Positions 3,956-50,105 of a stretch of DNA of 64,000 nt are shown in pieces; within the stretch, counting starts at the first letter, position 1; each line of letters begins with the position of its first letter. The stretch spans positions 22,117 through 86,116 of the forward strand of contig JAVVXB010000009.1 in NCBI GenBank assembly GCA_036651815.1, written 5' to 3'. The stretch is from Clostridia bacterium. GTDB lineage: Bacteria > Bacillota > Clostridia > Christensenellales > CAG-138. Below the pieces are notes generated by a model. That model was not told the origin of the DNA. It saw only the letters and a program-made list of their open reading frames with translations, and made no database searches. A program made the translations under genes and the position numbers.

Positions 3956-4813
3956 TCAAGAATCACTGCTGCCAAAGACCTTCTTCATGAATGCTTCGGT
4001 ACTCAGGTCACCGGGTCGATTGAATCGGCCCAGTCCCCAAAGACTAGCAAAATCACCCACCTTTACGCAACTGATGGATTCATAACAGGTAAGTGTGCCG
4101 ACAAAGCCCATCTCCTTAAGTAGGGACCGGCTCAGTCGATCGATGATACCAAATGGATAGGTAAAGAACTTCGGCGTGATGCCGCAGCGATTGGTCAGTT
4201 CCGTCTGGAGGCGCTGTACATCGGCCGTGAAAACCTTTGTATATTCGGCATCGCTTTCGCCCTTTTTGCGTGCGCTGCCCATGCGACCTTTTTGCCCGTG
4301 CATATCCCAGGAATGGTTTTGAATTTCAAAGCGTTCGTTCAGCATCAGCGCTCGAATATCCAACCAGGTTACATGGGCATAGCTTGGATTTGGATCAGGG
4401 GTTTCCGAAAAGCGTTGGGTATAGGCGCCCACGACGGAAAGAACCGCCCGGCAATCGTACTCCTCTAGGATTGGCAACACATACGTCAGGTTGTTGAGAT
4501 ATCCGTCATCAAAGGTCAATACGACGGGTTTGTCAGGCAATGTCCCGATGCCTTCCACGTAATCAGTGAGATCCTGCATGACCACGGTTTCATAGCCGTT
4601 GTCAAGCAGATAAGCAATGTCCTGCCGCAGCCGATCCGGCGTTACAATAAACTTGCAGGTGCGTGCAGGATCCTTCAGAACGCTGTGATACATCAGGATC
4701 GGAACAGCACAGCTCTCGCCCTCCACCGTCTTGATCACAGGCATCGCTCTCGTACAACCGACGAGAGACAGCAGCAGCGCACAGGCACAAAAACAGATCC
4801 ACAATCGTTTCAT
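3956..4813 (-). CDS. Lipoprotein polysaccharide deacetylase (CE4/NodB family)
   Basis: Signal peptide MKRLW...LVGC (lipobox); PILMYH, TFDDGY, NHSWDMH and YPFG motifs; start moved to ATG 4813. Confidence 0.88.
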   Translation of the reverse strand: MKRLWICFCACALLLSLVGCTRAMPVIKTVEGESCAVPILMYHSVLKDPARTCKFIVTPDRLRQDIAYLLDNGYETVVMQDLTDYVEGIGTLPDKPVVLTFDDGYLNNLTYVLPILEEYDCRAVLSVVGAYTQRFSETPDPNPSYAHVTWLDIRALMLNERFEIQNHSWDMHGQKGRMGSARKKGESDAEYTKVFTADVQRLQTELTNRCGITPKFFTYPFGIIDRLSRSLLKEMGFVGTLTCYESISCVKVGDFASLWGLGRFNRPGDLSTEAFMKKVFGSSDS

Positions 4814-4819
4814 ACACAA

Positions 4820-4846
4820 AAGATATGCCTGAATCCATCCGTTTAT
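4820..4846 (-). promoter_or_regulatory. Candidate sigmaE-type sporulation promoter for the deacetylase
   Basis: Minus strand ATA-N16-CATATCTT, 6 nt before the ATG; resembles the sigmaE consensus ATA-N16-CATAcanT. Confidence 0.4.
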
Positions 4847-5086
4847 GTTGCGGTCGCAGACAGGTATGGTATAATCAAAAAATATACTATATCGGTTAGG
4901 GTGTGTTTTAAAATTTCCAAAAAGCGTGTTCAGTAGCATTTTTGTCAACTCTGTGTCCATACTCCTGAATTTTCCGCCAATTCGTCTTCGAATTCACCGC
5001 TTAAACTGACAAAAAGATTCACTGGAAAATGCAAATTCTTCTTTTAAAAACACGACCTTGAGTAAAAAATTGGGGGGATTATTTGA

Positions 5087-5821
5087 ATGCACAATTTTGA
5101 TGTCAACGATGTTTTCCTGTATGTCATCGTCGCAGTAGTTATCGTGTTTGTCATTCTGGAATCGCTGGTGTTTCTGATCAAAGCATGGAAACGAGGCAAG
5201 CAGATCGGCATGGACACGGCGATATTGAAAAAAACCGTAGCAACCAGCGCAATTTTCACTATTGCGCCTGCCTTCGCCATTCTGCTTGGCGTCATTGCGC
5301 TGAGCAAGTCGCTGGGTTTTCCGCTGCCCTGGCTCCGGTTGTCGGTCATTGGTGCGCTGACGTATGAAACCACCGCTGCAGCCAGCGCCGCTGCAGCGCT
5401 TGGGCACACACTCTCACAAAAGATTACCGATCCAAAGGTCTATTCTGCCATTGCTTGGGTCATGACGCTCGGCATCATTCCCGGTCTGGTGCTTGTCCCG
5501 TTCATCGGCAAAAAGCTGGAAAACGGTATGATCAAACTCAAGAGCAAGGATCAGAAATGGGGCGACATTTTCATGTCCGGTCTGTTTCTTGGTATGATTA
5601 GTGCCTTCCTTGGCGTAGTGTTTGCCACCGTCAATCTGGGACTTGTCGGTTGGATTCCGGTTTTCGTCATGCTAGCAGCGGCAATATTGATGCTCCTGTG
5701 TGGGCTGATCCGTAAACTGACCAACGCACGATGGATTGAGGATTATGCCCTGCCCATCAGCATGCTCGGCGGTATGGCGCTGAGCATCCCGATTACCAGC
5801 TTAATCACATCCATCGCGTAA
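5087..5821 (+). CDS. DUF5058-family integral membrane protein
   Basis: Multi-TM; 'LGFPLPWLRLSVIGALTYETTAA' matches the family pattern as I recall it; GGGGGA RBS. Confidence 0.7.
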   Translation: MHNFDVNDVFLYVIVAVVIVFVILESLVFLIKAWKRGKQIGMDTAILKKTVATSAIFTIAPAFAILLGVIALSKSLGFPLPWLRLSVIGALTYETTAAASAAAALGHTLSQKITDPKVYSAIAWVMTLGIIPGLVLVPFIGKKLENGMIKLKSKDQKWGDIFMSGLFLGMISAFLGVVFATVNLGLVGWIPVFVMLAAAILMLLCGLIRKLTNARWIEDYALPISMLGGMALSIPITSLITSIA

Positions 5822-5834
5822 GGGAGTGAAAGAA

Positions 5835-6503
5835 ATGAAAAGTCAAATGGAAAGAACCTATCGCGATTCAATGCACTTCACCGGCCGTATTTGGTCGTTC
5901 TGTGCGCTACTCATGCTGCTGGCCGTGCCTGCCGCCATCTGCGTTTACTATAATGCATGGCCGCCGATCTCCGGTGTACTCAAGGGTTTTATCAGTGTTG
6001 CACCCATCTTCTGGACAGTCGGGACCATTGAGGTCATCACCTATGTCCCCATGTTGGGCACGGGCGGCTCCTATCTTGGCTTTGTAACCGGGAACCTGTC
6101 GAACCTTAAGGTTCCCTGTGCCCTCAATGCTATGGAACGTGCTTCCGTTCGCCAGGGTACGGACGAAGGCGAGGTCATTTCCACCATCTCCATTGCCACA
6201 AGTGCCATTGTTACCACGGTGATCATCGCGCTGGGCGTGCTGCTGCTGGCGCAAATCCGGCCGTTTCTTGAAAGCACACTGATGCAACCTGCTTTTGACA
6301 ATATCTTGCCGGCGCTGTTTGGCGGTCTGGCGGTGGTCTATGTATCAAAAAACTGGAAAATTGCTCTTGCGCCGCTGATATTTATGGTGGTATTGTTCAT
6401 CTGCGTTCCTTCCCTCACGGGATTGGTCGGTATCCTGGTGCCGGTCGGCGCACTCATCGCCATTGGCGTTGCACGGATTCTCTACCGCAAGGGGCTATTA
6501 TAA
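5835..6503 (+). CDS. Integral membrane protein, partner of the DUF5058 protein (putative second transporter subunit)
   Basis: Multi-TM; 'GSYLGFVTGNLSNLKVPCA...GTDEGEVISTISIA'; AAGGGAG RBS overlaps the upstream stop. Confidence 0.7.
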   Translation: MKSQMERTYRDSMHFTGRIWSFCALLMLLAVPAAICVYYNAWPPISGVLKGFISVAPIFWTVGTIEVITYVPMLGTGGSYLGFVTGNLSNLKVPCALNAMERASVRQGTDEGEVISTISIATSAIVTTVIIALGVLLLAQIRPFLESTLMQPAFDNILPALFGGLAVVYVSKNWKIALAPLIFMVVLFICVPSLTGLVGILVPVGALIAIGVARILYRKGLL

Positions 6504-6616
6504 TACGTTCTGCGGTAAGAACAGCGTTTCAATCATTGCCGCAAATTCAGGCCTATCTTATGTAAACGAGATCGGTCTACAGATGAAGAAAATGATATGG
6601 ATGGAGGAAAACAGAT

Positions 6617-8068
6617 ATGTTCTCATCATGGAATCTGCTGTGGATTATCCCAGCAGGACTGCTCGCATTGTGGCTAATCGTCATTCTAGTGCGCGCCATT
6701 TCATTCCGACCCAAGGTTCAAGCCGCACCGGCTGTGGACGAGGCGGAAGTGGATGAAAACCGCGCCATCGAATCGCTGCAAAAAATGATCCAGTGCAAAA
6801 CAATTTCGTACTTTGACGAGGCTTTAATCGACGAAAGCGAGTTCGACCGCTTCCGTGCACTGCTGGTGGAACGGTTTCCGCGTGTATATGCGGCGTGCAA
6901 GTTCGAGCGCATTGGTCAATCCGGCCTACTCTATACGCTGAAAGGCAAGAAGTCGGATTTACCAAGCGTCTTTATGGCACATTACGATGTAGTACCCGCC
7001 AACGAAGAACAATGGGCAAAGCCCGCATTTGACGGGATCATGGAGGATGACGTTCTCTGGGGACGCGGCACACTGGATACCAAGGGTACGCTTAACGGCG
7101 TGATGGAAGCAGCGGAGATCCTGCTATCGAAGGGCTTTGAACCAAAACAGGATCTATATTTCGCTTTTGCCGGAGACGAGGAGGTTGCGGGCGCAACGCA
7201 GCCCACCATTGTTGAAACGCTGCGGGCGCGCGGCATCAAACCCGCCATCGTTGTCGATGAAGGCGGCGCGGTTGTTGAAAATATATTCCCCGGCGTAAAG
7301 CAGCCCTGTGCGCTGATTGGCATCGGAGAAAAGGGCATGATGAATGCCACAATGACCATCGAGGGTGCGGGCGGTCACGCAAGTGCGCCACCGGCTCATA
7401 CCAGCATTGGGTTGTTGTCCAGAGCCATTACTGAAATTGAAGGCCATCCATTTTCGCGGAAGCTGACCAAGCCCGTTGCTGAGATGTTTGATACACTGGG
7501 CCGGCACAGCAGCTTTGCTTATCGCTTAATTTTCAGTAATCTCTGGTGCTTTATGCCCTTACTGGACAGCATCTGCAAAAAATCCGGCGGTGAACTCAAT
7601 GGCATGATGCGCACCACCTGTGCGTTTACACAAATGGAGGGCAGCGAGGCAATCAACGTGCTACCGCCAAAAGCAAGCGTCGGTGCAAACTTGCGCATCA
7701 TCGGCGGCGAAACACCTCAATCTGCATTGGCCCATCTTAAAAAGCTTGCGGACTGCGAACAGATCCGTTTCAAAGATGCGTACAGCATGGCACCCAGCCC
7801 GTTCTCAGAGACCACCGGTGAAGCTTGGGATAAACTAACTGCGGCCGTACAGAACACCTGGCCGGAAGCACTGATTTCACCGTATCTCATGATTGCGTGC
7901 TCGGACTCCAGGCATTATTGCGCCATCAGCGACCATGTATACCGGTTTTCCGCCATGGCTCTGAGTACGGAAGAGCGCAGTTATATCCATGGCAATAACG
8001 AGCGCATACCCATCAAAAAGATCGTCAAGACGGTACAGTTCTATCTGCGACTCATGCGGTCGTTATAG
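6617..8068 (+). CDS. M20/M25/M40 metallopeptidase, membrane-anchored (PM20D1/Gly-Xaa carboxypeptidase-like)
   Basis: N-terminal TM anchor; AHYDVV, GRGTLDTK, GDEE, DEGG, GGHAS and IHGNNE motifs; GGAGGA RBS. Confidence 0.9.
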   Translation: MFSSWNLLWIIPAGLLALWLIVILVRAISFRPKVQAAPAVDEAEVDENRAIESLQKMIQCKTISYFDEALIDESEFDRFRALLVERFPRVYAACKFERIGQSGLLYTLKGKKSDLPSVFMAHYDVVPANEEQWAKPAFDGIMEDDVLWGRGTLDTKGTLNGVMEAAEILLSKGFEPKQDLYFAFAGDEEVAGATQPTIVETLRARGIKPAIVVDEGGAVVENIFPGVKQPCALIGIGEKGMMNATMTIEGAGGHASAPPAHTSIGLLSRAITEIEGHPFSRKLTKPVAEMFDTLGRHSSFAYRLIFSNLWCFMPLLDSICKKSGGELNGMMRTTCAFTQMEGSEAINVLPPKASVGANLRIIGGETPQSALAHLKKLADCEQIRFKDAYSMAPSPFSETTGEAWDKLTAAVQNTWPEALISPYLMIACSDSRHYCAISDHVYRFSAMALSTEERSYIHGNNERIPIKKIVKTVQFYLRLMRSL

Positions 8069-40877: not shown

Positions 40878-40943
40878 CTGCGAATCCTTTTTGTCTGCTT
40901 ATGCTGCAGGCTGCGAACCTTTTTTGTTTGCTTATGCTGCGGG
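40878..40943. repeat. Two 33-bp tandem copies spanning the sortase stop codon
   Basis: CTGCGAATCCTTTTTGTCTGCTTATGCTGCAGG versus CTGCGAACCTTTTTTGTTTGCTTATGCTGCGGG. Confidence 0.75.
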
Positions 40944-41531
40944 CGAAGCGACTACCACACACCGCTCCGGCGCGGGTCCAACGAAAAGGAAGGGATAACA
41001 CGTAACCAGTGTCAACAACGTTTCCTCCGTCTCGTCATAGATATGGGGATCGTCTGGATCTGTGATATAGATGCTACGCACCGTATAGGTTACGACGCTC
41101 TCGGCCGTCTCCACCGTTAAGGCGTCCCCCTCGGTCAGATTAGCCAACTCCCGCAGACCCGAATCCCTATGACCAAACAGCACAGCATTGCCCGACGTGT
41201 TCAGTTTCGCCGTATCCTCCGCCTGCCCCACGCCTTTTTCCAGTACCTCTGCACAAGTGCCGTAAAAAACGGGCGTCGCGGTGCGTTCGTCCCCCCGAAA
41301 CACTAAAATTCCAACCGCTTGATCTTCGGAAAGATCCGGCGCCCGTTCCGAGGAGCCACCCGCCGCACCGCTGTTGCCGCGGCTTTGCGTCAGTTGTGAA
41401 CGAGTGCGCGCCGCCCCGTCCTCCAGCGTTTTATCAACGGCAATTAGCTGATAGGCCCCCGTACCCAGCACCACTAGGGACGCGCCCATTGTAAACGACA
41501 GCAATGCGCCAAGCGGATGGATTCGTCTCAC
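40932..41531 (-). CDS. Class D-type sortase
   Basis: N-terminal TM; GHRDS, catalytic TLVTCYPF and ERCVV; start overlaps the upstream stop (GTGA). Confidence 0.9.
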   Translation of the reverse strand: MRRIHPLGALLSFTMGASLVVLGTGAYQLIAVDKTLEDGAARTRSQLTQSRGNSGAAGGSSERAPDLSEDQAVGILVFRGDERTATPVFYGTCAEVLEKGVGQAEDTAKLNTSGNAVLFGHRDSGLRELANLTEGDALTVETAESVVTYTVRSIYITDPDDPHIYDETEETLLTLVTCYPFLFVGPAPERCVVVASPAA

Positions 41532-43384
41532 GGCGTGGGCTTCCCAATCAGCTTCTTGCGGAAGACCAGTAGCAGCGTGCCGGTCAGCGTTACCGCGCCA
41601 AGGCCGATCAGCAGCAGCAAGCCATAGTTCCCGGCAGTGTCAATGCGTTGGCGGTTACGGAAGGTAACAACCTCCGTCTCGCCTTCCTCCAGCTGAACTT
41701 CCACAATTTGGCACGCAGGATTGATGATATAGCCGTCAGGCGCTTCCAGTTCCTTTACATAGTAAGTGCCCGGTAGCAGCAGCTCGGAAAACTGTGGATT
41801 ATCCTTGCTCGTTTCAAACACAGCCAGTTGGTTTTCACAGTTTCCATCCGAATACAGGCCTACCTTGCAGCCATCCAGCAGTTGCTCTGTGGTGTAATCC
41901 GCCTTGGCCACGCCGATTTTGCCGCGCACCACCTGCTTGTTTACCATAGTCACCGTCACCGTCTCATGTGGATTGATGGTTACGGTCTCCTCATTATCTA
42001 CGGCCATGTGGTAACCAATGGGCGTTGCCGTTTCCACAATGACATAGGAGCCTGGCTCGATGCTGCCCTGCAGAATAATCCCGTTTTCATCAGTTATCAG
42101 CCCCGTGTACAGCCGATTGGCATCCTTCTTTTCTGTTTTATAGATATCGAAGGTTGCGCCTTGTACAGGAACGTTCTCTTCATCAACCTTGAGAATGCTG
42201 ATCTGACCATAATGGGTATTCTTAAATCGAATCACGTCCAGCGGTTCTTCATCCACATAGAAATCATAAATTTTGACATCCGGAATATAGCCGATCGGCG
42301 CTGTCTTCTCCTTAAGATACCAGGTACCCTTTGTCAGTCCTGTAAACTCCACGTATCCATTCACATCCGTGGTCTTTTCATAAACGGTTGGATCTGTAAA
42401 TTGCGAATTGTTGGCAAGCTGGAACACGGCGCCTTCAATCCCTTCAAGCGTAGTAGAATCGTACTTCTGTATTTTCATATTAAAACCATCTGGGATTTCA
42501 CAGGTGAACGGAGCACTCGCATACAGCTTCGTCTTTCCCTCAAACGCGCCCACTAGACTCTGGGAAGCCAAACGCCCACCCTGTGGATTATAGAAATACG
42601 CGCCAAATTGCACCAATTGCATGCCTTGTACATAGAATGTATAATCTGCATCCGTAGGCAATCCGCTGACACGCACGGTGGTCATGCCTGCGCTGTCCGT
42701 GCTGCTTTCCACCGTTGCGTTCAGTGTGGCCAGATCTTTTGTGAACCCATGCTCAAGTGCAACAAGCGTTCCATCAGCTTGCAGCGACTTTGTAGAATAG
42801 CGATATACAGCGCTGCAAGTTCCGTTGTTGTTGTAGACAGTGTCCGCTGTAAGTGAAATGCTGCCAACCGGCACGGCGTACTCGATCATGGGCGGCAGTG
42901 CCCGATACCAGTTGTATAGGGCCGCCACCGTGCCTTCCAGATTTGTGAATGTCTTGCCGTTGGCCGCATTCCAGATGGCCAGTTGCGCAGCGGTGATCGC
43001 TTGTCTGCTCGTAAGTGTCGCAATACCGCAGCGTGAGCGTACGGCGTCAATCGACACGAACGGATATGCATTGTGTACAATAGCGCGGATGATCTGCGCT
43101 TTGTCCGGCGTAAAGTAATCCGCATCCTCCAGATTGACCCGTTCATACCAGCCGCCATCCACAATATACGTATCCGAGTCCATACAATAGGCCAGCGATT
43201 CCTTCTGCGCATCCGTCAGCCGAAACAACGTCGTTTGCATGTTGCCGACGGCATATCCGTTCTCCCCGAGTCCAACATACCGGTGATCATAACCACCCTC
43301 CGCCAATGCCGGAACGCACAATGCCAGCAGCATCAACGTTCCCAGAACACTGGCAATCCATTTTGTCCATTTCCTCGTTTTCAA
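41528..43384 (-). CDS. Cell-wall-anchored thioester-domain (TED/TQXA) adhesin with three SpaA/CnaB-like domains
   Basis: TTG start after AGGAGG; signal peptide; AYCMD, AQLAIW, SQSLV; three K...E-x-x-[AT]P-x-GY...N domains; C-terminal TM plus RKK tail. Confidence 0.85.
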   Translation of the reverse strand: MKTRKWTKWIASVLGTLMLLALCVPALAEGGYDHRYVGLGENGYAVGNMQTTLFRLTDAQKESLAYCMDSDTYIVDGGWYERVNLEDADYFTPDKAQIIRAIVHNAYPFVSIDAVRSRCGIATLTSRQAITAAQLAIWNAANGKTFTNLEGTVAALYNWYRALPPMIEYAVPVGSISLTADTVYNNNGTCSAVYRYSTKSLQADGTLVALEHGFTKDLATLNATVESSTDSAGMTTVRVSGLPTDADYTFYVQGMQLVQFGAYFYNPQGGRLASQSLVGAFEGKTKLYASAPFTCEIPDGFNMKIQKYDSTTLEGIEGAVFQLANNSQFTDPTVYEKTTDVNGYVEFTGLTKGTWYLKEKTAPIGYIPDVKIYDFYVDEEPLDVIRFKNTHYGQISILKVDEENVPVQGATFDIYKTEKKDANRLYTGLITDENGIILQGSIEPGSYVIVETATPIGYHMAVDNEETVTINPHETVTVTMVNKQVVRGKIGVAKADYTTEQLLDGCKVGLYSDGNCENQLAVFETSKDNPQFSELLLPGTYYVKELEAPDGYIINPACQIVEVQLEEGETEVVTFRNRQRIDTAGNYGLLLLIGLGAVTLTGTLLLVFRKKLIGKPTP

Positions 43385-43740
43385 TTGTAACCCTCCTGCT
43401 CGTACGAATTGCCGCCGCTTCGATTTTTTCTCTGTTCGGTGACAATCCATCCTATGCATCAAGCAGCAGGAACAGTCGTGCCTTGTTGCCCGTTTATTAT
43501 GCATACATTTGTAAATATAAGTTGTAGGGAACACACATTACAAAAATTGCCATTATTTCCATGCATGAACTGTGTTTTAATTAGATTTCTGCGCTTTTTT
43601 ATGATTGATTGAAAAAAATACTGCAGATTATCATTGCTATTCTTGCTTTTTTCCTCTAAGATTGTTAACATAAAGTAATTCTAACGTGGGATCATATAAC
43701 TGTCCCAACAAAACAATTGGAAACGAGGGATGACAACAGC

Positions 43741-44652
43741 ATGTGGAAATATGCTCTCAAGCGTATATTGCTCGCCGTCGCCACGGTGTTTATCATCATC
43801 ACCATTACGTTCTTTGCCATGAACGCTATTCCTGGCGGCCCCTTCCAGAAGGAAAAAGCGCCCGACCCAGCCGTACAAAAGGTGCTGGAAGCGCGTTTTC
43901 ACTTGGATAAACCCGTAGGAGAACAATTTTGGATCTACCTCGGCGATATGCTGCACGGTGATTTTGGAATCTCGCTCAAGAGCGGCCGCGAAATCTCCAG
44001 CATCATCAGTGAGTCCTTTGTTGTCTCCGCAAAGCTCGGCGGGCTCGCAATCCTGTGCGCAGTTTTTTTCGGACTCATCTTGGGTTCCATCGCCGCACTG
44101 ACACGCAACAAATGGCCTGATCGAACGATTATCTTCTTTACTACGTTGTTTGTATCCGTTCCATCCTTTGTGTTAGCAACGCTGCTATTATTGATTTTTT
44201 GTCTCAATTTGGGTTGGTTCCATGTTTGGAGCGCCACCAGCAACTCCTATTTTCTCCCGGTTATTTCCCTTGCGCTGTACCCGATGGCGTACATTACGCG
44301 CTTGACCAAGTCCAGTATGCTGGACGTTCTCGGGCAGGATTACATCCGCACCGCACGCAGCAAGGGACTTAAGGAAAGCGTGGTCATTTTTAAGCACGCG
44401 CTGCGCAATGCGCTCATCCCAGTCATTACCTACGTTGGCCCCATGACCGCCTACATTCTGACCGGTTCCCTCGTGGTGGAAACGGTGTTCACCATCGGTG
44501 GACTTGGCAGCAAGTTTGTTTCCGGTATTACCAACCGCGACTACCCCATGATCATGGCGACAACCATTTTTCTCGCCACGCTCATGGTTATTATGACGTT
44601 AATTTCGGATTTGATCTACAAGGTTGTCGATCCGCAAATTAGCTTTGATTGA
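43741..44652 (+). CDS. oppB: Oligopeptide ABC permease
   Basis: 'IPGGPF', 'GDFGIS', 'DYIRTARSKGL...KHALRNAL', 'NRDYP'. Confidence 0.93.
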   Translation: MWKYALKRILLAVATVFIIITITFFAMNAIPGGPFQKEKAPDPAVQKVLEARFHLDKPVGEQFWIYLGDMLHGDFGISLKSGREISSIISESFVVSAKLGGLAILCAVFFGLILGSIAALTRNKWPDRTIIFFTTLFVSVPSFVLATLLLLIFCLNLGWFHVWSATSNSYFLPVISLALYPMAYITRLTKSSMLDVLGQDYIRTARSKGLKESVVIFKHALRNALIPVITYVGPMTAYILTGSLVVETVFTIGGLGSKFVSGITNRDYPMIMATTIFLATLMVIMTLISDLIYKVVDPQISFD

Positions 44653-44666
44653 TGGAGGTGTCATAA

Positions 44667-45752
44667 ATGGACAAGAAAAACTACAGCGCGGATATGGTTC
44701 CCAAAAAACGCCTTCTCAGTCTGCAGCTCGACCTATCCAAGTTTGAGCCAGCCTCCAATGACGAAAAAGAGCAGCATGCCCAGATGCGTGAATCCACAAC
44801 CTTTTTTAAGGACGGCATGAAAAAGCTGTTTAAAAACCCGTTGGCGGTTGGCAGCCTGATCATTTTATTGATTGTTTTGCTAACGATCATCTTTGCACCA
44901 ATGATCGTGCCTTACGGATATGACGAGATGATTACCGTCAATGGCAAGCGGGACAAGAGCGCAAAGAATCTCGCGCCCTTCTCCTATTCCAAAATGGAGC
45001 AAAAAGCCATTGATGGCGGTGCAGAGATCTATCCGCACCTATTCGGCACCGACGAGTTGTGCCGTGATTACTTTGTCCGCGTCATCTATGGTACGCGTGT
45101 GTCTCTGCTGGTTGGCCTATTTGCAAGCATCATCGTGTTGATTATCGGCCTCGTTTACGGATCGATCTCCGGCTATGCGGGGGGCAAGGTTGACCTAGTG
45201 ATGATGCGAATTGTTGACATCATCTATTCTCTGCCCGACATGCTGATGATCATTCTGCTGTCGGTCGTACTGGATTCTGTGCTGGGCGTCGCCTTGACCG
45301 GAACCGTATTTGAAAAAATCGGCACCAATATGATTTCTCTGTTTATTGTGTTTGGTCTGCTGTATTGGGTGGGTATGGCACGCTTGGTACGTGGCCAGAT
45401 TCTCTCCGTGAAAAAGAATGAATATGTGCTGGCTGCCCGCGCACTGGGCGCAAAACCCGGACGCATCATCAAAAAGCACATTTTGCCCAACTGTATGAGC
45501 GTCATCATCATTTCCACCGCGCTGCAAATTCCATCGGCCATCTTTACAGAGAGCTTTTTGAGCTTTGTTGGTCTGGGTGTGCAGGCGCCGATGCCCAGCC
45601 TTGGCTCGCTGGCCAACGCCGCACGGGGCGGATTGCAAAGCTTTCCCTACAAGCTGGTTTTCCCTTCCATCATGATCTGCCTGATCGTGCTGTCGTTCAA
45701 TTTGCTTGGCGATGGTCTTCGTGATGCGTTCGATCCGAAACTCAGGAGGTAA
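44667..45752 (+). CDS. oppC: Oligopeptide ABC permease
   Basis: 'FGTDELCRD', 'ARLVRGQ', 'EYVLAARALGA', 'ESFLSFVGLG', 'GDGLRDAFDPK'. Confidence 0.93.
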   Translation: MDKKNYSADMVPKKRLLSLQLDLSKFEPASNDEKEQHAQMRESTTFFKDGMKKLFKNPLAVGSLIILLIVLLTIIFAPMIVPYGYDEMITVNGKRDKSAKNLAPFSYSKMEQKAIDGGAEIYPHLFGTDELCRDYFVRVIYGTRVSLLVGLFASIIVLIIGLVYGSISGYAGGKVDLVMMRIVDIIYSLPDMLMIILLSVVLDSVLGVALTGTVFEKIGTNMISLFIVFGLLYWVGMARLVRGQILSVKKNEYVLAARALGAKPGRIIKKHILPNCMSVIIISTALQIPSAIFTESFLSFVGLGVQAPMPSLGSLANAARGGLQSFPYKLVFPSIMICLIVLSFNLLGDGLRDAFDPKLRR

Positions 45753-45757
45753 GTCAA

Positions 45758-46765
45758 ATGAGCGAAGCATTATTGCAGGTTAAAGACCTTCATACATCAT
45801 TTTTTACGGAATCAGGCGAAGTGAAAGCCGTCAACGGCGTCTCCTTTGACTTAGAAAAAGGAAAGGTGCTGGGAATCGTCGGCGAATCCGGCTCTGGAAA
45901 AAGTGTCACAGCTTATTCGATTCTGCGCATACTCGTCGATCCCGGCAAGGTCGTCGGTGGAGAAGTCCTGTTTAAGGGCGAGAACGTGCTGGATTTTTCC
46001 AAGCACCAGATTCGCTCCCTACGCGGAGAAAAGATCAGCATCATTTTTCAGGATCCGATGACCAGCCTGAATCCGGTTTATACCATTGGCAATCAGCTGA
46101 TGGAGGTCATCCTGCTGCACACCGACCGCAACCGTGCGCAAGCCAAAGCACGCGCCATTGAAATGCTCACACTCGTGGGTGTCAATGAGCCAGAGAAACG
46201 CGTCGCCCAGTATCCCTACGAACTGTCCGGTGGTATGCGGCAGCGCGTGATGATCGCCATGGCTTTGGCCTGCGAACCTGATATTTTGATTGCGGATGAA
46301 CCAACGACTGCGTTGGACGTGACCATTCAGGCGCAGATTCTCGAGTTGATGCAGGACCTGCAAAAGAAGCTCGGCATGGCCATTATCCTCATCACACACG
46401 ATTTAGGTGTTATCGCCGATATGTGTGACGAAATCATTGTTATGTATGCCGGACGTGTCTGCGAACGGGGAACTGCAGATGAGATTTTCTATAACCCCAA
46501 GCATGAGTACACCAAGGGTTTGCTACGCTCCATTCCGAGCATTGTTGGCAAACAGGGTCGTTTGATCCCCATTGCGGGATCACCAGTTGACCAGTTGAAC
46601 TTGCCCACGGGCTGCGCGTTTGCCTCCCGCTGTGACAAGGCCATGAAGATCTGTCTCAATCAATGCCCAGAGGAAATTCCCATCAATGCCTGTCATATGG
46701 CGTCCTGTTGGATGAACGTCAAGACTGTCTATGAAGAAAACGCAGACGGAGGTGACGCCAAATGA
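45758..46765 (+). CDS. oppD: Oligopeptide ABC ATPase
   Basis: [35 protein letters not shown]-terminal Cys cluster. Confidence 0.94.
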
Positions 46766-47721
46766 GCGACACGCTGGTTGAAGTCAAGCATCTGAAACAA
46801 TATTTTCCCGTGAAAAACGGGTGGTTTTCCACCAAACCGCTCAAAGCGGTGGACGACGTTTCGTTCAGCATCAATAGCGGTGAGACTCTCGGCCTTGTTG
46901 GCGAATCCGGCTGCGGCAAGACAACCATCGGCCGTTCGTTGCTTCATCTATATAAACCCACCGCAGGTGAGGTTTGGTATGACGGCCAACTGATTACGAC
47001 GCAAAACATCCGCAACTTCCGCAAGGATATGCAAATTGTCTTCCAGGATCCCTATTCCTCGCTGAATCCGCGCATGACCGTCGGCGATATTATTGGCGAA
47101 CCACTGGATATTCATAACCTCTGCGCAACAAAAAAGGCGCGTGCCGACCGCATTGCGGAATTGCTGGAGCTCGTCGGGCTTTCCAGTGAGCACGGCCGCC
47201 GCTATGTCCACGAGTTTTCCGGCGGTCAGCGTCAGAGAATCGGCATTGCACGCGCACTGGCCGTCAACCCAAAATTCATCGTTTGCGATGAACCGGTCTC
47301 GGCACTGGACGTCTCCATTCAGGCGCAGATCATCAATACCTTTGAAGATTTGCAGAATAAGCTCCACATTACGTACCTGTTTATTGCTCACGACCTGCTG
47401 ATTGTTCACCATATGTCCAATCGAATTGCGGTCATGTATCTTGGCAAAATTGTTGAGCTTGCAAATGCGGATGACCTCAACACCCACCCAATCCATCCTT
47501 ACAGTGTATCGCTGCTCTCCGCCGTACCGATTCCTGATCCGGAACTGGCAAAAAAGCGTCAGCGCATTGTGTTGGAGGGTGATGTCCCCAGCCCGCTTAA
47601 TATGCCGAGCGGTTGTTCCTTCCGTACCCGTTGTCGGTATGCCACCGAGCAATGTGCATTGGCATGTCCACCTTTGACGGATCGGGGCGATGGGCATCAG
47701 GTTGCCTGTTGGAATAAGTAA
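46762..47721 (+). CDS. oppF: Oligopeptide ABC ATPase
   Basis: [34 protein letters not shown]. Confidence 0.94.
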
Positions 47722-47727
47722 GTGCCG

Positions 47728-47796
47728 TTGACAGCACCATAAAATATTGTTAAAATGATATATAATTTGCAATCCGGTCTTGTATCGGATTGCAAA
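47728..47796 (+). promoter_or_regulatory. Internal sigmaA promoter for oppA followed by a 5' stem-loop
   Basis: TTGACA-N17-TAAAAT with extended TG; hairpin TTTGCAATCCGGT / ATCGGATTGCAAA at 47766-47796. Confidence 0.75.
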
Positions 47797-47818
47797 CAAA
47801 TAATAAGGAGGAAATAAG

Positions 47819-49594
47819 ATGAATTTCAAAAAGCTATTCGCCCTGCTGACTGTGGTCCTCATGATCGCAGGATGCTTTGTTGCATGCGCACCCGCTGCAA
47901 CCACCACCCCCACCGAGCCAACCACGGAAGCGGCGCCCGCTGAGGAAGCAACCGAAGCGCCCGTCGTTGCTGCGGAAGTCGTTGATCCCACGAAGGGCTG
48001 GGGCGAATCCTATGACGCCCTGCTCACGCAGATCAAGACCACAACCGATTTTGAAGAGCGCGCAAAGCTGATGCATCAAGCTGAGGACATCCTCATGAGC
48101 ACCGGCGCAATCTGCCCGATCTATTACTACAACGACCTGTATATGCAGAAGCCCACAGTGGAAGGCTTCTATGCCAACGCATATGGCTTCAAATATTTCC
48201 TGTATTGCACCAATGCTGATTCCAAGACACTGCGCATCAACATCGCTTCCGAACCGGATCGTCTGGATCCCGCTCTGAACAGCTCCGTTGACGGCGCCTG
48301 CTTGGCAGTCAATAGCTTTGGCGGCTTGTACACCTACAGCCCGGAAGGCAAGCTCGTTCCGCAGTTTGCAACTGACTTTACCATGAGCGAAGATGGCCTG
48401 ACCTACGTGTTCACCATCCGCGATGGCCTCAAGTGGAGTGACGGTTCCCCGCTGACGGCAAAAGACTTCGAATACTCCTGGAAGCGTGCTGCTAATCCCG
48501 ATACGGCTGCTGACTATGCTTATATGTTCAACGCCATCAAGGGTTACGGCGCACCTGAGGGAATCGACGTCACCGCTTCCGAAGATGGCAAGACGCTGAC
48601 CATCGTGCTGAACGCACCTTGCGCATACTTCCTTGACCTCGCCGCTTTCCCGGCATACTTTGCCGTCAAGCAGGATGTTGTCGAGAGCGCAAAAGGCTAT
48701 AAGGATGCCGCTGGTGCCATCATTGATGCTGGCGCATGGGCAACCGAAGCCGGTTTTGTGTCCTCCGGCGCTTACACCCTCAAAGAATGGAAGCACAACG
48801 AGAGCATGACCTATGTCAAGAACCCCAACTACTACGATGCAGAGAATGTCAAGATCGAAACCATCGAGTATATGCTCTCCGCTGACGATACGGCAATCTA
48901 TGCAGCCTATCAGGCTGGCAACCTTGACTTCATCGACACCGTACCCGCTGATGAAATTCAGGCACTGCTCACCAACCCAGAGTTCCATGTAATCGATCAG
49001 CTGGGTACCTATTACATCGTCATGAACGTAAAATCCAAGCTGTTTGACGGCAAGACCCCCGCCGAAGCAGCTGCGATGCGTCGTGCCCTCAGCATTTTGA
49101 TCGACCGCAGCTACATCATCGAGACCGTTGCGCAGACCGGACAGAAGCTCGCAACCAGCTTCCTGCCGCTGAACATGCTCGATGGTAACGGCAAGGCCTT
49201 CAAGGATGCCGCAAACTGGGAGTATCCGAATGGTTCCGATGGTTACTACAGTGAAGAAGTGGATGTTGAAGGCGCAACTGCTCTGCTTAAGAGCGCTGGC
49301 TTCAAATTCACCGATGGCAAGCTTGATGCTTCCAACCCGATTACCTTTGAGTATCTGACCAACGATGGTTCTGCCCACGTTCAGATTGCAGAGTGCGTAC
49401 AGCAGGATCTGGCGGCTGTCGGCATCACCATGACGGTCAAGTCCGTTGACTGGGATACCTTCCTTGCAGAACGTAAAGCCGGTAACTACGACATCGCTCG
49501 TAACGGTTGGATTGCAGACTTCAGTGACCCGGTCAACATGCTGGAAATGTGGGGCACCGACAGCGGCAATAACGACGCACAGTTCGGCAGATAA
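47819..49594 (+). CDS. oppA: Oligopeptide-binding lipoprotein, apparently circularly permuted
   Basis: Lipobox FVAC plus Ala/Pro/Thr/Glu linker; SEPDRLDPA, 'FTIRDGLKWSDGSPLTAKDFEYSWKR', SSGAY, KNPNYY, GWIADF. Confidence 0.93.
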   Translation: MNFKKLFALLTVVLMIAGCFVACAPAATTTPTEPTTEAAPAEEATEAPVVAAEVVDPTKGWGESYDALLTQIKTTTDFEERAKLMHQAEDILMSTGAICPIYYYNDLYMQKPTVEGFYANAYGFKYFLYCTNADSKTLRINIASEPDRLDPALNSSVDGACLAVNSFGGLYTYSPEGKLVPQFATDFTMSEDGLTYVFTIRDGLKWSDGSPLTAKDFEYSWKRAANPDTAADYAYMFNAIKGYGAPEGIDVTASEDGKTLTIVLNAPCAYFLDLAAFPAYFAVKQDVVESAKGYKDAAGAIIDAGAWATEAGFVSSGAYTLKEWKHNESMTYVKNPNYYDAENVKIETIEYMLSADDTAIYAAYQAGNLDFIDTVPADEIQALLTNPEFHVIDQLGTYYIVMNVKSKLFDGKTPAEAAAMRRALSILIDRSYIIETVAQTGQKLATSFLPLNMLDGNGKAFKDAANWEYPNGSDGYYSEEVDVEGATALLKSAGFKFTDGKLDASNPITFEYLTNDGSAHVQIAECVQQDLAAVGITMTVKSVDWDTFLAERKAGNYDIARNGWIADFSDPVNMLEMWGTDSGNNDAQFGR

Positions 49595-49632
49595 CTCTCC
49601 CCGTTCTTTGCGAAAATACAACGCGTATTTTA

Positions 49633-49665
49633 CAAAAGCTCCGGACATAACGTCCGGAGCTTTTG
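49633..49665 (+). terminator. Rho-independent terminator of the opp operon
   Basis: CAAAAGCTCCGGAC / GTCCGGAGCTTTTG perfect 14-bp stem. Confidence 0.85.
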
Positions 49666-50105
49666 TTAGTCCGCCAACGAAATATCATCGGCAGATCAAG
49701 GCATACTTCCCTCCCCCATCCGTTCCAGCATGGGCGTCATGAACACCAAAAACGGATGTGCAATTAGGAGCGGAAGTTTTGTGTGTTTTGATGGCCGTAC
49801 AGTTTCCAACATCGAAAACAACACTGGATAAATACGATTCGCCACCCGAAAAGCAAGTTGTTAGACAGTTTGACAAATGCTTTATCTCTCTGAACCATCG
49901 TTCGTATGTCTCCACAAATTCTGTTTCAACCCTGCAAAATTTCCCGATTTTCCTGCTTGCACATCTTTCGCTCCTGTTTGCCTGCATCCGCGGCTCTAAA
50001 GACGGATTGTATGAACCGTATTTCAGAATATATTGCCCGGAACGAATTGACACGCTACCACAGTGCGGTCTATCATTATGATATCCTGATGGATGGAGTG
50101 ATTTG

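Follow-up and report, generated by a model that had tools for sequence, protein, structure and literature searches.

Evidence for natural circular permutation of a putative OppA-type binding lipoprotein encoded in an oppBCDF operon of a Clostridia bacterium

Can a binding lipoprotein that carries at its beginning what its relatives carry at their end still be a complete receptor? The question is raised by a gene in a 64,000-nucleotide stretch of DNA from a Clostridia bacterium (GenBank assembly GCA_036651815.1, contig JAVVXB010000009.1, positions 22,117 to 86,116 of the forward strand), hereafter the window, to which all coordinates refer unless a locus is named. The gene is a single open reading frame (ORF) of 591 codons at 47819-49594 on the + strand and encodes a putative OppA-type lipoprotein of 591 amino acids. 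OppA belongs to the cluster C binding proteins, textbook receptors of ATP-binding cassette (ABC) transporters and common biosensor scaffolds. A sequence-only reading of the window had proposed that this protein is a naturally occurring circular permutation of a complete family-5 fold, with the usual C-terminal part placed at the N-terminus. The ORF, coordinates and peptides that it quoted are exact in the sequence, and the analysis below makes it very probable that the product is indeed a peptide receptor of cluster C (family 5, OppA-type), complete with its three domains but circularly permuted.

To describe chain orders, residues are numbered on the 591-residue query protein (q). Segment S denotes residues 60-131 and a, b and c denote the thirds of the core, such that the permuted order is written S-abc and the canonical order abc-S. 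Using phmmer against PDB sequences, two swapped matches were obtained with B. subtilis OppA (8ARE): residues 135-587 matched positions 19-450 of the chain (independent E-value, i-E, 3e-59) while residues 60-127 matched positions 451-519 (i-E 5.2e-5). DppE (8AY0) behaved in the same way, residues 134-584 matching 20-443 and residues 60-124 matching 447-512 (i-E 7.6e-9). These are the two offset diagonals that the sequence-only reading had predicted against OppA homologues. The same swapped pattern was weak with MppA (3O9P, i-E 0.2), and none of the 60 PDB sequences listed by phmmer was collinear with residues 60-591. The Pfam family PF00496 (SBP_bac_5) scored 287.7 bits against a cut-off of 32.4, covering residues 178-585 only and positions 1-367 of the 368 of the profile. 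In addition, segment S shares 68.7% identity with the C-terminus (residues 505-571) of P0029, a relative with canonical order. Judged by these alignments, the protein is a topological variant whose homology is intact: it does not follow the canonical chain order, which starts in domain I and ends with the helices and crossover strand that come after the GNN loop.

The layout of the chain follows from these matches. A putative lipoprotein signal peptide occupies residues 1-23 (47819-47887, +); its hydrophobic N-terminus holds the lipobox-like motifs IAGC, ending at C19, and FVAC, ending at C23. Among 166 S-abc relatives, a loose lipobox regular expression found a motif in only 110, and many of the 166 may be partial; the Cys-to-fold distances that it yields are unreliable and were left unused. 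Residues 24-59 (47888-47995, +) form a low-complexity tether rich in A, T, P and E. Segment S comes next (47996-48211, +), with W61 to T131 encoded by 47999-48211. The five residues NADSK (132-136; 48212-48226, +) bridge the former C- and N-termini, both located in domain I, as deduced from the alignment ends and from model confidence. The core, residues 137-591 plus the stop codon (48227-49594, +), corresponds to canonical positions ~19-450 by Pfam and by structure alignment with VIA-align. It opens at residue 137 with the normal start of the fold, TLRINIASEPDRLDPA, and runs to the GNNDAQFGR loop of domain III, where the chain ends (...SGNNDAQFGR) before a TAA stop at 49592-49594. On the opposite strand, a 604-residue ORF (47834-49648, -) extends over the full gene and exceeds the real ORF in length. 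It is a shadow frame of a gene rich in G and C at third codon positions, and a trap for gene calling by longest ORF.

We then considered where the new ends fall in the fold. An AlphaFold2 (AF2) model of the protein had a mean predicted local distance difference test (pLDDT) score of 83 and a predicted template modelling score (pTM) of 0.79. Values were 86-93 in segment S, below 50 for residues 17-53, and block means of 87 and 96 were found in the joint region, residues 121-140. With VIA-align, residues 134-586 of the model superimposed on residues 18-449 of 8are_A (Z 29.8, root-mean-square deviation 2.7, 411 residues aligned), residues 129-591 on residues 1-443 of 1ola_A (Z 28.5) and residues 135-591 on residues 30-454 of 4gl8_A. 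Foldseek matched the model to an OppA-like fold with an E-value of 2e-33. The model thus confidently predicts a three-domain OppA-like cluster C fold. Within it, segment S forms two helices, residues 62-74 and 78-94, in domain III and a long strand, residues 98-110, which crosses into domain I.

Domain borders were taken from two published descriptions. In the first, domain I of StOppA comprises residues 1-44, 189-269 and 487-517, domain II residues 45-188, domain III being made up of residues 270-486 (PMC6305025); in the second, domain III of BbOppA4 spans residues 286-503 (PMC5736914). By these borders, the cut in the permuted protein maps near residues 441/442 of StOppA and 454 of BbOppA4, inside domain III and ~45-50 residues ahead of the crossover from domain III to domain I. 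According to the alignments, the cut falls just past the GNN motif, in a surface loop of domain III that is variable. The loop that follows GNNDxQFG[RK] is long and variable in the canonical members of the clade; S-abc forms stop there and keep the loop at their N-terminus. One inter-lobe crossover is the strand q98-110, and the other lies at q395, which aligns to StOppA residue 270, again by the borders given in that source. Since both remain unbroken, the hinge connectivity should be unchanged. The altered hinge connectivity that had been proposed from the sequence is therefore not supported, and the related idea that the moved segment forms a hinge crossover holds in part: segment S still provides the crossover strand, and the crossover is not lost by the move. 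The proposal that the protein is tethered through the opposite lobe fares better, because the new N-terminus maps in domain III as compared to domain I for the start of canonical OppA. We infer that the sole physical change would be a lipid tether that leaves from domain III, not from domain I.

The permuted order was next followed through relatives. A protein homologue search gave 7,992 matches, and the order was scored in the best 120 clusters, 57-73% identical to the query. As many as 118 of them were S-abc; one was S-abc-S (P0014) and one was canonical (P0029). Together with the swapped 8ARE and 8AY0 matches, this count upholds the earlier proposal of a natural circular permutation. Scanning species-representative genomes gave 604 matching stretches; 570 were confirmed as relatives, and 80 loci were kept. 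In all 80, collinearity with the query extended to residue 591 from a start no later than residue 76. They come from Clostridiales, Christensenellales (Limiplasma, Pullichristensenella, Faecivicinus), Oscillospiraceae and Lachnospiraceae, with a few metagenome-assembled genomes (MAGs) labelled Chloroflexi. The exact oppBCDF-A order was found in 59 of the 80 loci; most others were cut by contig ends or held an extra gene. Conservation of the permuted chain order thus extends over many Clostridia from gut and rumen. Among 151 evenly sampled genomes of the taxonomic order to which the source genome belongs, seven, counting the source genome, had a collinear match, showing that the distribution is patchy. 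Five permuted homologues with 60-65% identity (L046, L050, L053, L055, L059) are located in rumen or gut MAGs labelled Chloroflexi, Anaerolineaceae or Flexilinea, which could reflect horizontal transfer or mis-binning.

We then asked what the protein would do. Residues R561, W564 and D567 align to R413, W416 and D419 of StOppA, positions which in OppA-type peptide receptors grip the termini of the ligand, and are invariant in a 26-sequence alignment. In segment S, W61, D77, R81, H86, E89, P100, Y102, Y104 and D106 are among the positions invariant in the same alignment. A docking and molecular dynamics study on 1B58 lists ligand contacts that include Asp419, Arg413, Trp416, Tyr485, Leu504 and Asn506 (PMC6305025); by that list, the contacts Tyr485, Leu504 and Asn506 fall in the part relocated in the permuted protein. 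The most likely interpretation from the sequence and the operon is that the protein acts as peptide receptor for this Opp importer, with the usual Venus-flytrap closure. It would be the substrate-binding lipoprotein to the ABC importer whose oppBCDF genes lie immediately upstream, its predicted chain consisting of the signal peptide, a Cys that carries the lipid, a disordered tether of ~36 residues, the ~70 residues that usually end the fold, a five-residue joint and then the usual first ~450 residues. With the cut inside domain III and the crossovers intact, normal opening and closing is expected; like any OppA, it would open and close on peptides and dock on OppBC.

Several observations weigh against this interpretation. 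The NCBIfam OppA model NF011684 scored 218.9 bits, as compared to a curated cut-off of 947, and its match came in two stretches, the best of which placed residues 133-589 on positions 36-467 of the 543 of the profile. More generally, all 12 NCBIfam matches remained under their curated cut-offs. Since these equivalog scores are far under the cut-offs, the substrate class is unsupported by a curated model. The position of segment S in the canonical C-terminal place would follow from homology, secondary structure and model confidence, the predicted fold and function from the sequence and the AF2 model, while the junctions are those of the assembly. The permuted order with its conservation, the operon context, the confident fold and the conserved peptide-contacting residues are shown directly, whereas peptide specificity, the lobe bearing the tether, normal transport function and high expression are what one would expect.

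An alternative function has also to be weighed. Instead of taking up nutrients, the receptor could serve mainly in signalling, either by sensing peptides or pheromones like PrgZ or in partnership with a kinase. PrgZ is indeed among the structural matches of the AF2 model (Z 26.4). Moreover, in five representatives (P0137, P0139, P0140, P0142, P0145) the permuted S-abc module is C-terminal to a Ser/Thr protein kinase domain, an arrangement which suggests that the module is used there as an extracellular sensor. Other S-abc fusions involve SLH (P0127), DUF6709 (P0122) and apolipoprotein-like coiled coils (P0123, P0125). In contrast, the gene studied here is a stand-alone gene for a putative lipoprotein directly after oppBCDF, as in the 59 relatives mentioned above, and no kinase or regulator lies beside it among the ORFs examined. 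A mainly signalling role is thus improbable in this case.

The surroundings of the gene are consistent with a role in peptide import. The permuted oppA is the last gene of an operon, all on the + strand, in which it follows an oppB-type permease gene (43717-44652; Pfam BPD_transp_1, 1.4e-39, and BPD_transp_1_N), an oppC-type permease gene (44667-45752; BPD_transp_1, 3.4e-34, and OppC_N, 3.6e-13) and two ATPase genes, oppD-type (45758-46765) and oppF-type (46762-47721), each with ABC_tran and oligo_HPY domains. The 97-nucleotide spacer between oppF and oppA contains a promoter-like site, TTGACA-17-TAAAAT with a TG (47728-47756, +), which matches 11 of 12 consensus positions. It is a consensus match only, and four such sites were seen in the region as compared to 2.6 expected from shuffles. 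A Shine-Dalgarno sequence, AAGGAGG (47805-47811, +), can be read 7 nucleotides 5′ of the ATG. Downstream of the stop codon, a predicted intrinsic-terminator hairpin (49632-49666, +) has a 15-bp stem, an A-run before it and a U-run after it (-31.1 kcal/mol, z -8.6, none of 200 shuffles as good). This hairpin was found by folding; a pattern scan missed it, probably because the T-run is partly within the stem. The effective number of codons of the gene is 39.7, as compared to 47.3-53.3 for eight neighbouring genes, corresponding to a stronger codon bias. Such a bias fits a highly expressed receptor without proving it. With its conserved operon position, many invariant residues and retained peptide-contacting residues, the gene looks functional. 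Of the earlier description of the gene as functional and highly expressed, the functional appearance is thus supported, and the codon bias, the promoter-like site and the terminator are borne out, whereas high expression is what we infer. Elsewhere in the window, on the strand opposite to the opp operon, a sortase gene adjoins a gene for a 668-residue SpaA/thioester-domain (TED) surface protein (40932-43534, -).

Could the gene instead be a decaying oppA that has lost its C-terminus and acquired an unrelated helical extension at its N-terminus, and that now encodes a non-functional remnant? The Pfam match limited to mid-chain would fit such a remnant, and StOppA gives one significant stretch only with phmmer. 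However, residues 60-127 match the C-termini of OppA and DppE and that of P0029, as detailed above, and the invariant residues of the segment, the confident fold, the conserved synteny and the strong codon bias all argue against decay. Nor is the gene truncated with a continuation after its stop, in agreement with the sequence-only reading: the terminator hairpin follows, and the genome is without a second copy of segment S. The search for such a copy in the genome returned one full match, one paralogue with 26% identity and two matches limited to the signal peptide and linker. Decay is therefore very unlikely. The weakest alternative, an artefact of assembly or gene calling in which a contig was joined wrongly or two tandem oppA genes were merged into a chimera, can practically be dismissed: although the source genome is a 59-contig draft, its junctions are known from the assembly only and tandem oppA paralogues occur in relatives, the same order is found in the 118 protein clusters and in the 80 independently assembled genomes, including a 3.46-Mb chromosome-level record (L017), and the signal peptide and tether lead straight into segment S, with a clean stop and a terminator at the other end and no second copy of the segment in the genome.

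With circular permutation as the preferred reading, we examined how the chain start varies in the family. A representative search of 1.84e9 proteins gave 42,688 representative matches, and the best 150 of them were scored for order. S-abc (59) and canonical abc-S (53) were the most frequent, and two further rotations were observed, c-S-ab (13) and bc-S-a (2). The remainder consisted of three fused doublets (P0124, P0193, P0248), two multi-module giants (P0179, P0235) and 18 fragments or partial orders. In the c-S-ab and bc-S-a proteins, the lipoprotein signal runs straight into mid-fold sequence, with cut sites near q412, q480-505, q246 and q295. A hinge cut was considered for the q~412 type and rejected: because q395 corresponds to StOppA residue 270, this cut falls ~10 residues inside domain III. 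The c-S-ab module was also observed in very long proteins: in the giants P0208 (3278 residues), P0228 (3366 residues), P0179 (2704 residues) and P0235 (2843 residues), either such a module ends the chain after Big_2/LRR repeats or at least four family-5 modules stand in tandem, and P0235 has BTAD and AAA_16 domains at its N-terminus.

Different orders were also encountered at one operon position. In genome G044, which belongs to the same order as the source genome, a 591-residue gene directly after oppD-oppF (L085, 4339-6114, -) starts at q~507. Its AF2 model has a pLDDT of 83.5, residues 210-590 superimpose on residues 1-357 of 1OLA (Z 29.0), and the cut lies near StOppA residue 357. Genomes G008 and G142 hold canonical-order genes at the operon position of the permuted oppA. 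The OppD and OppF proteins of these three genomes are ~69-72% identical to those of the operon studied here. Thus, orthologous-looking operons hold three different chain orders.

Trees were built on the a+b region (q135-410) from 163 proteins; 24 without the full domain were left out, giving 146 domain rows. In the 146-row trees (FastTree; IQ-TREE quick search), the S-abc label changed 15-16 times, 6-7 of these changes being forced by starred branches. A careful 45-row tree, whose rows were picked after the first tree to include mixed pairs, gave 10 changes, of which at least 6 were forced, and S-abc appeared as one clade in none of its 200 bootstrap trees. The canonical P0029, 69-73% identical over a+b, falls in a clade supported at 100/97 with the query, P0002, P0024 and P0082. 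Other well-supported groups mix orders as well: canonical P0182 with S-abc P0183 (100/99, 65% identity), canonical P0184 with c-S-ab P0200 (100/99), and S-abc P0196 with canonical P0211 and P0221 (100/100). The trees are unrooted, so that the direction of each switch is not set. One result speaks for caution in counting origins: the approximately unbiased test, run on rows picked after seeing a tree, gave only marginal evidence against a single S-abc origin (p 0.0465), although the log-likelihoods differed by 393. In P0183, the joint from S to a (...FFYG-CSGS-FTACIAS) resembles the lipobox and linker of its canonical sister P0182 (...AGC-GSSSG-...TVCIAS); this joint may be a scar of gene fusion, or chance.

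As to the route, the permuted gene would have arisen when binding-protein genes were duplicated in tandem and fused in frame, and one part was then lost at each end. Within this clade, the process seems to have occurred repeatedly and in either direction. A survey for duplicated intermediates, as suggested with the initial proposal, did find them. Locus L052 carries tandem S-abc oppA paralogues (4070-5755 and 5857-7599), each with its own signal peptide, and two adjacent oppA genes were present in 5 of the 80 kept loci. Fused forms comprise P0124 (S-abc-S-abc), P0193 and P0248 (both abc-S-abc-S) and P0014 (S-abc-linker-S). The tandem genes, the fused doublets and P0014 fit the route of duplication, fusion and truncation. 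Overall, the evidence leans towards a permutation-prone OppA-type family in Clostridia, whose chain start moved repeatedly, even at one operon position, with at least 6 switches on the trees and at least 5 cut sites (q~59/591, ~246, ~295, ~412 and ~480-505); reversion to the canonical order, as in P0029, seems to occur, and tandem gene fusion is the likely route.

Compared to canonical OppA, DppE and MppA (cluster C, PF00496; 8ARE, 8AY0, 1OLA/1B05), the permuted protein has the same fold, with Z values of 28-30 over ~410-420 residues and ~30-34% identity, retains the equivalents of R413, W416 and D419, and is likewise encoded, as a putative lipoprotein, with oppBCDF (permeases and oligo_HPY ATPases). 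It differs in that its last ~70 residues come first, its termini lie in domain III where those of the canonical proteins lie in domain I, and the old termini are closed by a five-residue joint. The canonical-order relatives of the same clade (P0029, P0129, P0134) and the G044 rotation share the fold with other start points. A natural permutation of an ABC-transporter binding lipoprotein is described for Treponema pallidum Tp0684/TpMglB-2 ('Type Ic / Cluster Bc'; PMC4990184). TpMglB-2 is likewise permuted and of a kind that occurs chiefly in organisms whose binding proteins are tethered, but it belongs to cluster B and binds sugar, strands of its N-lobe have moved to the C-terminus, similarity is poor in the permuted part and a fourth hinge crossover was added. 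In the present protein, by comparison, homology of the moved part is clear and the crossovers would be unchanged in number. The structural and sequence matches listed for it were all cluster C, with no TpMglB-2-like Cluster Bc protein among them. No description of a permuted OppA, DppA or family-5 protein was found in the literature covered, in which subscription journals were largely absent. The protein is best described as a topological variant, real and conserved, within a known family, and its predicted function is ordinary; the interest lies in the frequency of permutation and the number of re-cut sites.

Such proteins carry the ordinary annotation 'peptide ABC transporter substrate-binding protein', and no more than their mid-chain is recognized by Pfam; homology modelling or domain-boundary tools built on the canonical order will therefore mis-handle thousands of gut and rumen sequences. 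Tandem genes, fused doublets and the S-abc-S form would represent living intermediates for the duplication-and-truncation model. A large natural set of functional permutants, cut at several sites, would reveal the loops in which the fold accepts new termini, and it would suggest that permease docking is independent of where the membrane tether leaves the receptor. If the family is indeed permutation-prone, the position of the lipid tether on the receptor would be functionally free.

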